Part shown: positions 9,593-20,906 of the stretch, piece after piece
How positions within the stretch are numbered: position 1 is the stretch's first letter
Layout: each line of letters begins with the position of its first letter
Assembly (NCBI GenBank): GCA_964474895.1
Contig: CAYYUK010000003.1
Location: forward strand, 1 to 57,675
Origin: Candidatus Woesearchaeota archaeon
GTDB taxonomy: Archaea; Nanobdellota; Nanobdellia; SCGC-AAA011-G17; PNOQ01
Length of the DNA: 57,675 nucleotides
Direction of reading: 5' to 3'
Notes under the pieces: model-generated
What the model saw: the letters and a program-made list of their open reading frames with translations, nothing else
Databases searched by the model: none
Told to the model about the DNA's origin: nothing
Program-made: the position numbers and the translations under genes

Positions 9593-10939
9593 ATGTTAAG
9601 AACACATTCTTGTGGAGAACTAAACAAATCCCATGTAGGCAAGAAAGTAGATCTGAGCGGTTGGATAGACACAATAAGAGTTCTAGCAAAATTAGCCTTT
9701 GTAGATTTGAGAGATAAACATGGCATAACTCAAATAATGTTCGAGAAAAAATTCCTAAAAGACTTAAAAAACCTAAAAAGAGAATCAATAATTCATATAG
9801 AAGGAGAAGTAAAAAAGAAGCCAAAGCCAAACAATAAGCTAAAAACTGGCCAAATAGAGGTGCAGGTTACCAAATTAGAGATTCTGAACTACGCAGAAGA
9901 ATTACCACTAGAATTAGACGAATCAATAGAATCAACCGAAGAAACTAGACTAAAGTATAGATATCTGGACCTAAGAAAGCCAAGAATGCAAAAAAACCTA
10001 ATAATTAGGCACAAAGTAATCAAAGCAATTAGAGATTTCCTAGATAAAGAAGATTTCTTAGAAATAGAAACACCAATTTTATCAAAATCTACCCCTGAAG
10101 GAGCAAGAGACTACATAGTACCTAGCAGGAAATTCAAAGGAAGTTTCTATGCATTACCTCAATCACCCCAACTATTCAAACAATTATTAATGATTTCAGG
10201 ATTCGATAAATATTTTCAGATAGCAAAATGTATGAGAGATGAAGATTTAAGAGCAGATAGGCAACCAGAATTCACCCAATTAGACCTAGAAATGAGCTTC
10301 ATAGAAGAAGAAGACATATTTGAATTATTTGAAAAAATGTTAAAATTTGTATGGAAAGAAGTTCTGGGTATAAATCTAAAAATTCCTTTTGAAAGAATAA
10401 CATACAAAGAATCAATTAAAAAATATAAAACGGATAAACCAGACTTGAGAAAAAAAGAAGATCAATTCAAATTCGTATGGGTAACAGATTTTCCACTATT
10501 TGAATGGTCCAAAGAAGAAGGAAGACACGTAGCAGCACACCACCCTTTCACAGGAATCACTAAAAAAGATCTAAACAAAATAGGAAAAACGCAAGACATA
10601 ACTTCAAGATCTTATGATTTAGTCCTAAATGGGTGGGAACTTGGAAGCGGAAGCATAAGAGTAAATGATCAAAAATTACAATCAAAAATCTTCAAAGCAT
10701 TAAAAATCTCAGAAAAAGAAGCTAAACAAAAATTTGGATTTTTCCTAGATGCATTAAAATTTGCTCCGCCACATGGAGGATTTGCAATCGGATTAGATAG
10801 ATTAATTGCAATGGCAGTAGGAGAAGACTCAATAAGAGAAGTAATTGCATTTCCAAAAAATAAAGATGCAAGAGATTTAATGACAGATAGTCCATCAGAA
10901 GTTTACAAAAAACAATTAAAAGAAGTTGGAATAAAATGA
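9593..10939 (+). CDS. aspS: Aspartate--tRNA ligase, bacterial type, lacking the GAD insertion domain
   Basis: MLRTHSCGEL N-terminus, RLKYRYLDLR, STPEGARDY, YALPQSPQLFKQLLM, RDEDLRADRQPEFTQLD, PPHGGFAIGLDRL, REVIAFPK. Confidence 0.97.
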   Translation: MLRTHSCGELNKSHVGKKVDLSGWIDTIRVLAKLAFVDLRDKHGITQIMFEKKFLKDLKNLKRESIIHIEGEVKKKPKPNNKLKTGQIEVQVTKLEILNYAEELPLELDESIESTEETRLKYRYLDLRKPRMQKNLIIRHKVIKAIRDFLDKEDFLEIETPILSKSTPEGARDYIVPSRKFKGSFYALPQSPQLFKQLLMISGFDKYFQIAKCMRDEDLRADRQPEFTQLDLEMSFIEEEDIFELFEKMLKFVWKEVLGINLKIPFERITYKESIKKYKTDKPDLRKKEDQFKFVWVTDFPLFEWSKEEGRHVAAHHPFTGITKKDLNKIGKTQDITSRSYDLVLNGWELGSGSIRVNDQKLQSKIFKALKISEKEAKQKFGFFLDALKFAPPHGGFAIGLDRLIAMAVGEDSIREVIAFPKNKDARDLMTDSPSEVYKKQLKEVGIK

Positions 10940-12210
10940 CATTCATTTCAATAGAAGAAGCAATTAAAAAAAAGAAAGGAAAAATAGCAATCCATGGTTG
11001 GATACATAGAATAAGAAAAATGAAGGATAAAATCTTCATCGTTCTTAGAGATTCTTCAGAAATAATTCAATGCGTAATAAAAGACCCAAACTTAGTAAAA
11101 ACTGCAGATTCATTATTAACAGAAAGTTCTTTAGAAATAGAAGGAAACATATATGCTGATAACAGAGCACCAACAAATTACGAAGTAGAAGTAAAAAAAT
11201 TAAGAGTAGTTGGTATAGCAGAAGACTTCCCAATCGGAAAAGATCAAAACCCAGAATTTCTTCTAGACAACAGACATTTATCAATAAGAAGTAGAAAGTT
11301 GGCGGCTTCATTAAAGATAAGATCAACAATTATGGGTGCACTTCATGAAAAAATAAGAAGTTTAAAATTTATAGAAGCAGAAGCACCAAGTTTTAGTGGA
11401 GAAACAAGCGAAGGAGGATCAGAAACTTTTGAAGTAAACTATTTTGGAAAGAAAGCATTTCTCACACAATCTTGGCAATTATATGCAGAAAATCTAATTT
11501 TCCCATTTGAAAAAGTATATGCTATGGCTCCTTCCTTCAGAGCAGAAAAATCAAAAACAGGAAGACACTTAACAGAATTCTGGCATTTTGAAGTTGAAGC
11601 AGCATGGTCAAACCTAAATGATATAATAAAAATAGCAGAAGAATGTATAATCTATTCAATAAAAAAAGTACTAAAAGATAATAAAAAAGATTTAAAAATT
11701 TTAGGAATAACAGAAGATAGATTAAAAAAAATAAAATCTCCATTCTCAAGAATAACTTATGATCAAGCAATTAAATTTTTACACAAAAAGGGATTTAAAA
11801 CAAAACATGGTGAAGATTTAGGAACAAAAGAAGAAAAAGAGTTAGCAAAACATTATGGTGAATTTGTAGTCGTAACAAATTACCCACTGAAAATATTAAA
11901 ATTCTATCACGGAGAGGATCCCAAAAAACTTGGAACTGGAATGAACTTCAACTTACTAGCTTCAAATGTTGGTGAACTAGTTGACGGATCACAAAGAGAA
12001 CCAGATATTAAGAAAATAAAAGATAGACTAAAAAAAGAAGGTGTAAACCTTGGTAAATCAGATTGGTACCTAGATTCAAGAAGATATGGTTCAGTTCCAC
12101 ACGCAGGATTCGGCTTAGGTACAGAAAGATTTGTTCAATGGTTGTGCAATTTAGATTCAATAAAAGATGCAATACCATTCCCAAGAACTATGAGAAGAAT
12201 TAGTCCTTAA
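10936..12210 (+). CDS. asnS: Asparagine--tRNA ligase, archaeal type
   Basis: FLTQSWQLYAE, SFRAEKSKTGRHLTEFWHFEVE, YGSVPHAGFGLGTER, IPFPR. ATGA overlap with the aspS stop. Confidence 0.93.
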   Translation: MTFISIEEAIKKKKGKIAIHGWIHRIRKMKDKIFIVLRDSSEIIQCVIKDPNLVKTADSLLTESSLEIEGNIYADNRAPTNYEVEVKKLRVVGIAEDFPIGKDQNPEFLLDNRHLSIRSRKLAASLKIRSTIMGALHEKIRSLKFIEAEAPSFSGETSEGGSETFEVNYFGKKAFLTQSWQLYAENLIFPFEKVYAMAPSFRAEKSKTGRHLTEFWHFEVEAAWSNLNDIIKIAEECIIYSIKKVLKDNKKDLKILGITEDRLKKIKSPFSRITYDQAIKFLHKKGFKTKHGEDLGTKEEKELAKHYGEFVVVTNYPLKILKFYHGEDPKKLGTGMNFNLLASNVGELVDGSQREPDIKKIKDRLKKEGVNLGKSDWYLDSRRYGSVPHAGFGLGTERFVQWLCNLDSIKDAIPFPRTMRRISP

Positions 12211-15336: not shown

Positions 15337-15381
15337 TTCTAAATTGCTAACCTTTTTAAAACTAAAATCTTCACTATCTTT

Positions 15382-15453
15382 GGCCCTATAGTTTAGTGGA
15401 TAGAATATCGGCCTTCGGAGCTGATGACCTGGGTTCGAATCCCGGTAGGGCCA
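15382..15453 (+). tRNA. tRNA-Arg (anticodon TCG)
   Basis: Acceptor GGCCCTA/TAGGGCC; anticodon arm TCGGC-CT TCG GA-GCTGA; T loop TTCGAAT; no intron and no encoded CCA. Confidence 0.95.
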
Positions 15454-15501
15454 TAATTCTGAATCAACAAACTTAAATACAACAAAATTAATTTTCAAAT
15501 T

Positions 15502-16386
15502 ATGAGGGTAAACCATTACTTCTACGCAGGTCTAGATTTCATGTTTGACAAAAAGGGAAATCCTTGGTTCATAGAAGCGAATTTCTGGCCAGGATCAAAT
15601 ACATTCTACAATGTAATGAAAAATCATTCAGTAATAAATACCCTGACAAAACTTATGAAAAAAAACGGTGGAAACATAGCAATAATCAATTCAAAAAAAG
15701 ATAAAAAAGAAGAGACAGATAACGGAACGTGGCACTACCATACCTTCAAAAAGAAAATACCTAATCTAAGATTATGTAATGTTGAAGACAATAAAAATAG
15801 CAGATCACATTTAACAGATGTTAATGGAGAAACATTCAAACCAGACACAATTTTCAGATATAAATATCCCTTACACCCTTCATTTGATAAAAACGCTTTA
15901 GTAATAAATCCAACTAATGTAGAACATGCAGTAACAGACAAAATAAAATGTTTGCACATAGCAAAAAAAGCAGGAATAAAATTTCCATTTACTGTAATAG
16001 TAAAAAATAAAACGGACGTAAAAAGAACTATAAAAAACAATCCAGATGTCTTTAAGTCTGGCTACGTTATAAAACCAATAGCTAAATGGGAAGGAATTGG
16101 TGTTCACGTTCTAAAGAAAGGAGAAAAAATACCAAAAATAACAGAAAAGGAACTTCTAGAACAACGAATAGTGCCAAGGTTACACCATAAATGCTTCTGG
16201 GATGCAAGAATCCTTGTAGTAAATGGAAAGTTTTGTGGAGGATTCATCAGAGAGGACAAAAGGAAAGTAACAAACATATCTCGCGGAGGACACGCTGAAA
16301 TAATACCAAAGAATACTTTAAAAAAATTAAAAGCCCCTTCTCTAAAAATAGTAAAAGCAATAGACAACTATGTGAAAGAAAAATAA
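15502..16386 (+). CDS. Circularly permuted RimK/LysX-family ATP-grasp ligase, 294 aa
   Basis: Internal order NIAII / DTIFR / INP...DKIK...AGIKFPFT / VIKP..WEGIGV / DARILVV / TNISRGG matches RimK. The normally C-terminal GxD...ExN..PG motif (YAGLDFMFDKKGNPWFIEANFWPG) is at the N-terminus. Confidence 0.85.
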   Translation: MRVNHYFYAGLDFMFDKKGNPWFIEANFWPGSNTFYNVMKNHSVINTLTKLMKKNGGNIAIINSKKDKKEETDNGTWHYHTFKKKIPNLRLCNVEDNKNSRSHLTDVNGETFKPDTIFRYKYPLHPSFDKNALVINPTNVEHAVTDKIKCLHIAKKAGIKFPFTVIVKNKTDVKRTIKNNPDVFKSGYVIKPIAKWEGIGVHVLKKGEKIPKITEKELLEQRIVPRLHHKCFWDARILVVNGKFCGGFIREDKRKVTNISRGGHAEIIPKNTLKKLKAPSLKIVKAIDNYVKEK

Positions 16387-16481
16387 AAAATTTAAGTTTC
16401 TTAGAGTGATTACATACTACACTGACTTGAAATGCTTTCTTAGGAAGATTTAAAAACCAAAAATAAGTCAAATTAAAGTAC

Positions 16482-16565
16482 GCGGGAGTGCCGGAGCGGT
16501 CAAACGGGATAGGCTCAAGACCTATTAGCTTAGTGCTTACGCAGGTTCGAACCCTGTCTCCCGCA
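16482..16565 (+). tRNA. tRNA-Leu (anticodon CAA)
   Basis: Acceptor GCGGGAG/CTCCCGC, A73; arm ATAGG-CT CAA GA-CCTAT; long variable arm; own promoter GGAAGATTTAAAAA about 30 nt upstream. Confidence 0.95.
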
Positions 16566-16625
16566 TATAAATTAATAATTCTTTAAGAATAAACCAGAAT
16601 CAAAACACTTAAGAACACTAAATTC

Positions 16626-16673
16626 TAGCCCTAGACTATTAAAGAATGCCGAATTCTTAACAATCTAGGACTA
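16626..16673 (-). other. 48-nt imperfect hairpin (21-bp stem, 5-nt loop)
   Basis: Minus strand TAGTCCTAGATTGTTAAGAAT-TCGGC-ATTCTTTAATAGTCTAGGGCTA pairs fully with three G.U pairs and one bulged U. Confidence 0.55.
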
Positions 16674-16721
16674 ATAAATAAACAATTTACTTGATTTAAA
16701 AAAGTATCGGAGAAATAAAAA

Positions 16722-18509
16722 ATGAAAAAATATGTAACGGATACGTCCGTAATAATAGAAAAAATAGCTTCAACGCTAATAAAAAAGAAAGAACTAAGTG
16801 GAACCATCATAATTCCCAATGCTGTTGTGGCAGAATTAGAAGCTCAGGCAAATAGAAGAAAAGAAATTGGATTCTTGGGACTTGACGAACTAAAAGAGCT
16901 ACAAAAGTTAAAGAAATCAAAAAAAGTAGAGATAACTTTCCAAGGTGAAAGACCAACCGTAGATCAAATAAGATTTGCAAAAGCTGGAGAAATTGACGCT
17001 TTAATAAGAGATATAGCCTACAAAGAAAGGGCAACTTTAATTACCGCAGATAGAGTTCAGGCAGAATCTGCAAAAGCTTATGGTTTAGAAGTTAAATTCA
17101 TAGAACTAAAAACACCCGTAGAAAAAGCACAGATAGAAAAATTCTTTGACGTTAAAACAATGTCAGTTCACCTAAAAGAAGATTCCATTCCAGTTGGTAA
17201 AAAGGGAGAACCTGGAAATTGGGACTTGGTAAAACTAGGAAAGAAAAAGATTTCAAGAAAAAGAATGGAAGAATTGGCAAAAGATATTGTAGAAAAAGCA
17301 AAAATGGATCCAAAATCTTTCATAGAAATTTCTAGACCTGGTTCCAGTGTAATACAATATAAAAATTACAGAATTGTTATTGTAAGAACTCCAGTAGCAG
17401 ACGGATTAGAAATCACTGCAATAAGACCAATAAAGAAACTTTCATTAGAAGATTATAAAGTACCAAAAGAAATCTTAGAAAGAATAAAAACAAAAGCAAG
17501 AGGGATTTTAATAGCCGGTGAAACGGGCTCAGGTAAATCCACTTTTGCACAAGGAATTGCAGAATTCTATAACAAGGAAGGAAAGATAACAAAAACAGTA
17601 GAATCCCCTAGAGATTTGCAGTTAAAAGAAGATATAACACAATACTCTAAAAGTTTCACATCTTCAGAAGAAATCCATGACATACTTTTCCTATCAAGAC
17701 CAGATAATATAATTTTTGATGAAGTTAGAGACACTCCAGATTTTAAATTATTCACAGACTTGAGACTGGGCGGATCAAATTGTTTAGGAGTAATTCATTC
17801 TGCATCTGCAATTGATTCTGTACAAAGATTTATTGGAAGATTAGATACCGGTATGATTCCATCAGTAATTGATACGATTATATTTATGGACTCTGGGAAG
17901 ATTGCATCAGTACTAACATTACAAATAACAGTAAAAGTTCCATCTGGAATGACTGAATCAGACTTGGCAAGACCAGTTATAGAAGTATATGATTTCATTG
18001 AAAACAAACCATCATATGAAATTTACTCTTATGGGGAACAAACTGTTGTTATTCCAGTATCTACTGAAAAATCTCCAACAATAGAACTTGCAGAAAAACA
18101 GCTAATGAGAGAAATAAGAAAATATTCAAACAAAGCACGAATAGAATTAATCTCTCAAACAAGAGCAAATCTTTATGTACCCAAAAGAGACATACCTGCA
18201 ATAATTGGAACCGCTGGAAAAAGAATTGATCAAATAGAAAAAAGTCTTGGAATAAAACTTTCAGTAAAAGAACTTGAAGAAAAAAAAGAGACAACAAAAT
18301 ACAATACTTCTGAAACAAAGAAGTATCTTATATTTGAGTTCTCAAAACATCAAGCAAACCAAAATGCAGAATTTGAATTAGAAGACAGTTTCCTATTCGC
18401 TGCAATAATTTCAAACAAAGGACAGATCAAAGTTCACAAACATTCAGAGATTGGAAGAAAACTTTTGGATGCTCTAGACACAAACAAGAAATTAGAAATC
18501 AAGACATAG
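16722..18509 (+). CDS. PIN-domain P-loop ATPase with KH domain (PINA / MJ1533 family)
   Basis: N-terminal PIN (YVTDTSVII, EAQAN, GEIDALIR), Walker A GETGSGKST, TVESPRDLQ, PDNIIFDEVR, GVIHSAS, and KH-like IIGTAGKRI. Confidence 0.93.
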   Translation: MKKYVTDTSVIIEKIASTLIKKKELSGTIIIPNAVVAELEAQANRRKEIGFLGLDELKELQKLKKSKKVEITFQGERPTVDQIRFAKAGEIDALIRDIAYKERATLITADRVQAESAKAYGLEVKFIELKTPVEKAQIEKFFDVKTMSVHLKEDSIPVGKKGEPGNWDLVKLGKKKISRKRMEELAKDIVEKAKMDPKSFIEISRPGSSVIQYKNYRIVIVRTPVADGLEITAIRPIKKLSLEDYKVPKEILERIKTKARGILIAGETGSGKSTFAQGIAEFYNKEGKITKTVESPRDLQLKEDITQYSKSFTSSEEIHDILFLSRPDNIIFDEVRDTPDFKLFTDLRLGGSNCLGVIHSASAIDSVQRFIGRLDTGMIPSVIDTIIFMDSGKIASVLTLQITVKVPSGMTESDLARPVIEVYDFIENKPSYEIYSYGEQTVVIPVSTEKSPTIELAEKQLMREIRKYSNKARIELISQTRANLYVPKRDIPAIIGTAGKRIDQIEKSLGIKLSVKELEEKKETTKYNTSETKKYLIFEFSKHQANQNAEFELEDSFLFAAIISNKGQIKVHKHSEIGRKLLDALDTNKKLEIKT

Positions 18510-20677: not shown

Positions 20678-20725
20678 AAAACTTTTTCTCTTTTTTTAAT
20701 TATTTAATCTTAAACAAATAGATTA

Positions 20726-20800
20726 CGCTCCGGAAGGGATTTGAACCCTCGACCCCTTCCTTAGGAGGGAAGTGCTCTATCCAAGCTGAGCTACCGGAGC
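20726..20800 (-). tRNA. tRNA-Arg (anticodon CCT)
   Basis: Acceptor GCTCCGG/CCGGAGC, G73; arm CTTCC-CT CCT AA-GGAAG; T loop TTCAAAT. Confidence 0.95.
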
Positions 20801-20809
20801 AAAAAGAAA

Positions 20810-20881
20810 TGCGAGGGCCGGGACTTGAACCCGGGTCAGCTGGGTGGAAACCAGCTATACTAACCACTATACTACCCACGC
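20810..20881 (-). tRNA. tRNA-Gly (anticodon TCC)
   Basis: Acceptor GCGTGGG/CCCTCGC (U4.U69 mismatch), A73; arm GCTGG-TT TCC AC-CCAGC; T loop TTCAAGT; in tandem with tRNA-Arg. Confidence 0.92.
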
Positions 20882-20906
20882 ATACTTTCAAAGAAAAAAT
20901 CTTGTC

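Follow-up and report, generated by a model that had tools for sequence, protein, structure and literature searches.

Circular permutation of enzymes is rare, and for ATP-grasp enzymes we know of descriptions only in large, ancient families, namely the GspS-like enzymes, eukaryotic glutathione synthetase (GS) and CP_ATPgrasp. Eukaryotic GS and the CP_ATPgrasp_1/2 families, which are reportedly circularly permuted, reach ~420–470 amino acids (aa) or more. The GspS-like enzymes GspS, YgiC and YjfC (Pfam family GSP_synth; PDB 2io7, 7uk8 and 7uk6) are bacterial or kinetoplastid proteins of 386–619 aa that use spermidine as the amine substrate, and in them the Mg hairpin stands ahead of the pre-ATP-grasp domain while the chain ends near the J-loop. 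The classical ligases RimK, LysX/ArgX, CofF and MptN have ~280–300 aa and keep the canonical order from N-domain through lid to C-domain. Here we analyze a gene in a stretch of 57,675 nucleotides (nt) from Candidatus Woesearchaeota archaeon (assembly GCA_964474895.1, contig CAYYUK010000003.1, positions 1–57,675 of the forward strand; hereafter the window, with a G+C content of 31.7%). It encodes a 294-aa ATP-grasp protein that resembles the classical ligases in size and has catalytic residues in common with them, but carries its hairpin and helices at residues 1–55 (Table 1). We consider it likely that the product is a catalytically competent ATP-grasp ligase of DPANN archaea that adds an amino acid, and that its C-domain module came to the N-terminus through a separate permutation by duplication.

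The initial annotation had described the gene as a circularly permuted ATP-grasp ligase between two tRNA genes in which every part is present once, in rotated order, and the open reading frame (ORF), its flanks and the profile coordinates are as it described. In native order, the Pfam RimK profile aligns residues 145–268 to its positions 2–125 of 188, and the beginning of the protein aligns to profile ends: residues 8–52 correspond to positions 205–249 of 255 in YheCD, residues 9–40 to positions 238–271 of 292 in TTL, and residues 11–33 to positions ~261–283 of 312 in Ddl chains. The NCBIfam MptN profile (positions 13–227) covers residues 44–270, which shows that the pre-ATP-grasp domain is also present, right behind the relocated piece. 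After re-joining residues 56–294 with residues 1–55 in that order, the RimK match becomes a single stretch (profile 2–174 of 188), with a small gain in bits for the curated models (RimK from 49.4 to 50.5, YheCD from 36.1 to 42.7 and MptN from 46.6 to 49.1). We also scanned every third rotation point with a hidden Markov model (HMM) of the closest classical relatives. The best single-domain score in native order is 72.8 bits, with the match divided over two domains, compared with 106–108 bits in one domain (HMM 89–309) for rotations at residues 57–105, and scores are lower again beyond. The rotated sequence thus yields one RimK stretch and, against the nearest classical family, a single-domain score about 35 bits higher, as the initial annotation had anticipated. 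In the reverse direction, the HMM of the permuted family matches classical relatives in two non-collinear, crossed stretches. In the classical protein P0078, HMM positions 116–295 align to residues 76–251 and HMM positions 9–58 to residues 256–304 (independent E-value 2.8e-9), which means that in a classical chain only ~4 residues separate the two termini of the permuted protein. Residues 1–55 are the classical C-terminal Mg-binding hairpin and helices, and residues 56–294 are the N-domain, the lid and the first half of the C-domain.

This arrangement recurs in a larger family. A word-indexed search returned nine homologues of ~295 aa with identities down to 37%, all of which begin with M.V..Y..AGLDF..D..GNPWFIEAN. 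Searching 1.84 billion representatives with a profile gave 905 proteins at E<=1e-3; the full-length, collinear permuted family comprises ~70 clusters (50% identity), whose E-values reach down to 1e-26, and longer variants of 390–420 aa also have this hairpin at the N-terminus and this helix at the C-terminus. The homologues have the breakpoint in common: across 57 aligned members the termini are constant, with a median of 11 residues preceding the catalytic Asp and the chain ending a median of 33 residues past the J-loop Gly. The residues D12, E25, N27, K147, K191, D234, R236, R250, N258 and G262 are kept in 91–100% of these members. For the ATP-binding lysines K147 (57/57) and K191 (56/57) together with the Mg2+ ligands D12, E25 and N27 the range is 96–100%. 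Such conservation of the active site argues for selection on catalysis. All nine loci in species-representative named genomes belong to DPANN or unclassified archaeal metagenome-assembled genomes (MAGs), that is, to Woesearchaeota, Aenigmatarchaeota or records titled only ‘archaeon’ or ‘uncultured archaeon’, and some genomes have two permuted copies (L012; L010 with L013). A literature search for permuted RimK proteins and for ATP-grasp enzymes of DPANN archaea, which did not cover Iyer 2009 and Polekhina 1999, gave no relevant description. Judged by these sequences, the proteins form a conserved, undescribed ATP-grasp family that is compact, DPANN-specific (found so far only in DPANN archaea) and probably independently permuted.

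In principle, the gene could result from misassembly, be what is left of a tandem duplication as a pseudogene, or be an ORF with the wrong start, in which case Met14 would be the true first residue and the hairpin would be incomplete. Automatic gene calling does start at Met14 and gives a 281-aa product (P0001), and the two flanking tRNA genes are of a kind that often serves as a recombination site. However, four independent assemblies (ENA, JGI and two Logan runs) contain the identical 885-nt ORF, and a syntenic orthologue (L003), 57% identical, agrees with it in both termini and in the tRNAs on either side. Together with the ~70 homologous clusters, the independent assemblies exclude the misassembly that had been named as a possible refutation. 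The Met14 call is repeated in all public copies of the gene and removes 13 conserved residues, among them the catalytic D12. Residues 1–13 are conserved across a large family with constant termini, and the N-terminal consensus M.V..Y..AGLDF of the homologues supports the ATG at 15502 over Met14 as the start. Hence, we regard an artefact as effectively refuted and its probability as negligible.

Structure prediction is consistent with the profile coordinates. An AlphaFold2 model based on a nine-sequence alignment (predicted local distance difference test, pLDDT, 82.2; predicted template modelling score, pTM, 0.79) begins with a beta-hairpin of strands 7–15 and 21–27, in which conservation marks D12, E25 and N27 as the putative Mg2+ ligands, followed by two helices (32–39 and 43–53). 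Behind the short linker KKNGGN, the strand NIAII (59–63) opens a beta-alpha-beta-rich N-domain (59–135), and the lid then holds the ATP-binding K147 and K191 and the hinge EQRI (220–223). The first half of the C-domain consists of antiparallel strands at 231–252 (WDxR, R250) and the J-loop TNISRGG (257–263), and the chain finishes with a strand (264–267) and a helix (270–293). The predicted fold has the three parts of an ATP-grasp enzyme, namely a pre-ATP-grasp domain, a lid and the antiparallel sheet of the C-domain. A Foldseek search against the PDB gave 95 matches at E<=1e-3, and the 50 best listed are all ATP-grasp proteins with a probability of 1.00. The model thus suggests that the protein adopts an ATP-grasp fold, and the fold matches would place the N-terminal hairpin in the active site.

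The top Foldseek match is GspS (2io7; E 2.9e-9, query TM-score, TMq, 0.61), followed by YjfC, YgiC, 3k1t (2.3e-8) and eukaryotic GS (3kal and 8fbz; E ~1e-6, TMq 0.44–0.47), and the classical RimK, LysX and Ddl rank behind these with TMq ~0.5. The protein 3k1t, which we take to be a member of the CP_ATPgrasp family, was matched by fold only. This ranking, together with the identical order of elements (hairpin, pre-ATP-grasp domain, lid and a J-loop at the end) and a local similarity between IREDxxxxT in our protein and IREDRALIT in YgiC, could mean that the family is a minimal, divergent branch of the GspS/YgiC/YjfC/CP_ATPgrasp clade, which inherited an ancient permutation and later shifted its termini by one helix. 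We find this rather improbable. Foldseek aligns sequentially and favours any permuted protein with the same order, so the ranking is expected under either origin and shows only that this kind of permutation is known. The GSP_synth model (PF03738) reaches 15.6 bits against a gathering cut-off of 29.3 and covers the lid region only; weak GSP_synth matches also occur in several other members of the permuted family, and we rejected them as a link to the GspS clade given that a classical RimK module (P0072) scores 47 bits over the same region. The CP_ATPgrasp_1/2 and eukaryotic GS models of Pfam do not match the protein even at E<=10. The family HMM gives its classical neighbors four to five times more bits than GssC or YgiC (~310-aa classical family 100+27 bits, Escherichia coli RimK 38.6, GssC 21.8 and YgiC 19.9).

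The breakpoints are also unlike. We compared the YgiC, YjfC and Gss sequences of E. coli K-12, and the alignment to YgiC is collinear, with residues 7–28 corresponding to 97–118 and residues 186–257 to 297–373. Upstream of the YgiC Mg hairpin (97–118), after ~35 further residues, lie the strand and helix that come after the J-loop in classical enzymes, and in all three proteins the chain ends ~13–15 residues past the position aligned to our residue 257, with the helix upstream of the hairpin. In our protein the corresponding helix (270–293) is still C-terminal and the break comes after it, whereas the break of the GspS-like enzymes falls between the J-loop and the strand and helix, a difference of one strand plus one helix. 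In the classical enzymes this helix immediately precedes the Mg hairpin, and in YgiC and GspS it is on the N-terminal side of the hairpin. The 294-aa protein furthermore lacks the ~95 extra N-terminal residues of the GspS-like enzymes, and there is no sign of spermidine as its substrate. From eukaryotic GS and CP_ATPgrasp_1/2 it is set apart by profile and size.

Sequence affinity points instead to classical enzymes. The best curated matches are the RimK domain (E 5.6e-13), MptN (2.3e-12), CofF (5.9e-12) and rimK_fam (8e-12). The RimK/LysX-type assignment of the initial annotation therefore stands as a resemblance and as a domain match (PF08443, 49.4 bits against a cut-off of 21), but not as membership: TIGR00768 scores 45.1 bits against a cut-off of 143.4, the equivalog models for LysX/ArgX, CofF and MptN are likewise missed (27.0/275.6, 45.2/300 and 46.6/350), and Rimk_N (PF18030) does not match the protein. 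The nearest relatives are an unnamed classical ATP-grasp family of ~310 aa (for example, L014:4041–4985, L020:1369–2367, P0078, P0083 and P0100), which has the canonical order, shows two crossed stretches against the permuted profile and has an N-domain that can barely be aligned. A gene of this family adjoins the permuted gene in two unrelated loci, downstream of it in L014 and upstream of it in L020. In L014 (2934–4985), a 353-aa permuted protein with an N-domain insertion of ~25 aa is followed after 45 nt by the 314-aa classical paralogue, whose C-terminal sequence (YSVDVIF…IIELEAIPG) matches the one with which members of the permuted family begin.

Natural tandem fusions exist as well, both of RimK with RimK (P0072, P0114 and P0155) and of the ~310-aa family (P0089). 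They have 574–648 aa and two complete modules, in contrast to the 294 aa of our protein, and the permuted profile runs collinearly across their junctions (in P0072, HMM 10–293 aligns to 238–525 with 93 bits; P0114 and P0155 behave alike). An arrangement of this type is the intermediate predicted by a duplication-and-truncation model and fits permutation by duplication. Most likely, a classical RimK/YheCD-like gene was duplicated in tandem and fused, after which the first N-terminal and the last C-terminal parts would have been lost, moving the final C-domain module (two strands with three Mg2+ ligands and two terminal helices) to the N-terminus. The differing breakpoint, the lack of a CP_ATPgrasp match with GSP_synth below threshold, and the classical ~310-aa family as nearest relatives suggest that this event was distinct from the older one in the GspS/YgiC/YjfC clade. 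The independent permutation that had been claimed for the gene is thus favoured by its distinct breakpoint and classical affinity, and its position outside the described permuted families is borne out by the profile scores, but the kind of permutation was already known from GspS, YgiC and YjfC. Overall, an independent origin, with a classical gene of RimK/YheCD-like type as the source, is the explanation with the better support, though it is not proven.

The conserved active site and the fold suggest, by established ATP-grasp chemistry, that the protein is an ATP-dependent carboxylate–amine ligase acting through an acyl-phosphate. ATP would be bound between its lid and C-domain, and a carboxylate, once activated as an acyl-phosphate, would be coupled to an amine. 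The substrates of RimK, LysX, CofF and MptN (S6, LysW, F420 and tetrahydromethanopterin, H4MPT) find no contextual hint in this family, and none of the loci inspected has LysW, F420 or H4MPT pathway neighbors. The gene neighborhoods of other family members suggest peptide or oligo-amino-acid ligation as the substrate class. In L020, the order is Peptidase_M29, classical ATP-grasp, permuted ATP-grasp and PTH2, and the permuted protein (P0055, 2364–3863) is fused at its C-terminus to a poly-gamma-glutamate (PGA) hydrolase domain (Gamma_PGA_hydro). In L021, a RimB-like protein, two RimK genes and MscS accompany the permuted gene, which has an FGase as its immediate neighbor; in L025 and L026 the permuted gene is followed by FGase and GCS2 as overlapping genes; and L028 has MscS and Peptidase_M29 near the permuted gene. 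An Aenigmatarchaeota MAG (L012, 3135–11582) has five ATP-grasp genes in one island, one RimK-like, two YheCD-like and two permuted, alongside MscS, a CofE-like homologue of F420_ligase and a pair of paralogues (296 and 307 aa). We had suspected the latter two to be PGA-hydrolase-like and rejected this, as they have no Pfam match.

From these contexts, the enzyme may add an amino acid, with glutamate as the leading guess, to a peptide, a protein C-terminus or a small carboxylate, and the product may be trimmed by amidohydrolases of the FGase or gamma-PGA-hydrolase type and by M29 aminopeptidases. The repeated MscS neighbor allows speculation about an osmolyte-related role. In a further scenario, the independent permutation would be recent, with the classical, tandem and permuted states all extant and in places side by side, and the permuted ligase would form with its classical paralogue a dedicated two-ligase system, joined by FGase or gamma-PGA hydrolase, M29 and often MscS, that makes and recycles a small DPANN-specific acidic peptide, possibly an osmolyte or a protein tail; we consider this unlikely. 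Directly downstream of the orthologue in L001 (6927–7547) lies a gene for a 206-aa protein with a hydrophobic N-terminus and a strongly acidic C-terminal tail (…GEEDDDDDEEDDE), which resembles RimK-type acceptor tails and is a single case.

The adjacent classical paralogues could also mean that the permuted protein is a subunit or regulator that needs its classical partner, as in a heteromeric ligase, or that it has lost ligase activity. In L014 and L020 the two genes overlap or are separated by short intergenic spacing, and several ATP-grasp genes occur per island in some genomes. Most loci, including the window, have no adjacent paralogue, and all ATP- and Mg-binding residues are conserved, which makes a subunit or an inactive protein improbable.

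A number of observations weigh against the separate origin and the amino-acid substrate of the ligase as we propose them. On the side of origin, the best structural matches are known permuted enzymes, as would be the case if the permutation were ancestral to both this family and the GspS-like enzymes. Alignment of the family with hhalign gave 2.4e-8 for E. coli RimK alone and 4.7e-8 for a three-sequence GspS-like alignment, thin profiles that do not discriminate between origins. The tandem fusions are alike in arrangement, which is not established descent and does not establish a DPANN source. On the side of substrate, amide-bond-enzyme neighbors occur in a minority of loci, ~6 of ~13 independent contexts, no neighbor is shared across all family loci, and the 57-kb window has no further ATP-grasp relative and no relative of an FGase or a PGA hydrolase.

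Table 1 Features of the permuted ATP-grasp gene and its flanks in the window.
Feature	Position	Strand	Basis or remark
Permuted ATP-grasp ligase (predicted), coding sequence	15502..16386	+	294 aa plus stop; true start ATG 15502, not Met14
Residues 1–55, relocated C-terminal module	15502..15666	+	YheCD, TTL and Ddl profile ends; family HMM 9–58
Residues 56–135, pre-ATP-grasp (N) domain	15667..15906	+	MptN alignment; AlphaFold2 strand/helix pattern
Residues 136–225, central/lid domain	15907..16176	+	RimK profile; conservation of K147 and K191
Residues 226–269, first half of C-domain	16177..16308	+	Profiles, AlphaFold2, conservation; aligns to C-terminal end of YgiC
Residues 270–294 and stop codon, C-terminal helix	16309..16386	+	AlphaFold2; comparison with classical relatives and YgiC
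TATA-like box cTTAAATA, candidate archaeal promoter for a leaderless transcript	15472..15479	+	Sequence; positional comparison across orthologous loci
tRNA-Arg(TCG), upstream flank, landmark only	15381..15454	+	No functional link indicated; kept only in L003
tRNA-Leu(CAA), downstream flank, landmark only	16482..16565	+	Kept in L003

Both flanking tRNA genes are on the strand of the ATP-grasp gene. The tRNA-Arg/tRNA-Leu setting emphasized by the initial annotation is present on both sides, but it recurs in L003 alone, a close syntenic relative, whereas L001 and L006 lack it, and we therefore rejected the idea that it signals a function or a mobile element. The own promoter that the initial annotation gave the gene corresponds to an AT-rich, TATA-like box, TTAAATA (15473–15479), ~26 nt 5' of the ATG, and similar boxes occur ~24–35 nt 5' of the gene in most orthologous loci inspected. 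We compared only the positions of TATA-like boxes and left a sigma-70 scan unused, given that the organism is archaeal. A candidate archaeal promoter of a leaderless mRNA is plausible from this motif, which carries little weight at 32% G+C.

The surroundings of the gene are archaeal housekeeping genes, including two class-II aminoacyl-tRNA synthetases, a P-type ATPase, a PIN/T2SSE ATPase, SecDF and an STT3/AglB oligosaccharyltransferase. The synthetase genes (9593–10939 and 10936–12210, plus strand) overlap in tandem, have a tRNA-synt_2 and an OB anticodon domain (408/221 bits) and are probably an AspRS/AsnRS-type pair; L003 has a single such gene at the matching position. Downstream of the ATP-grasp gene, L003 (6916–7898) has a 70-aa membrane protein and a 198-aa AAA_28 protein around its tRNA-Leu, both of which are missing from the corresponding part of the window (16387–16721). 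A gene at 16722–18509 (plus strand) encodes a 595-aa protein with an N-terminal PIN domain and a T2SSE/PilT-like ATPase and is syntenic with L003, as is a pair of minus-strand tRNA genes 7 nt apart (tRNA-Arg(CCT) and tRNA-Gly(TCC), 20725–20882). In another locus (L024, 6001–7772 of a 211-kb contig), the permuted gene is followed after 33 nt by ribosomal protein L1 and then by nucleotide-metabolism genes, an arrangement that is probably coincidental.

Automatic annotation labels the protein merely as ‘RimK-like ATP-grasp’ and, by its tendency to start at Met14, loses the catalytic Asp. DPANN archaea have a very small set of enzymes, to which the gene adds an uncharacterised ligase that is apparently under selection, and its contexts hint at a peptide or oligo-glutamate metabolism that is directly testable. 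It is a compact, RimK-sized case with classical relatives and fusions available for comparison, which makes it a tractable model for permutation by duplication and for the role of chain order in ATP-grasp catalysis. As a clean natural example of circular permutation, it is of a known kind and introduces no new principle. With GspS, YgiC and YjfC, it has this kind of permutation in common, but not the termini, the size or the sequence affinity.

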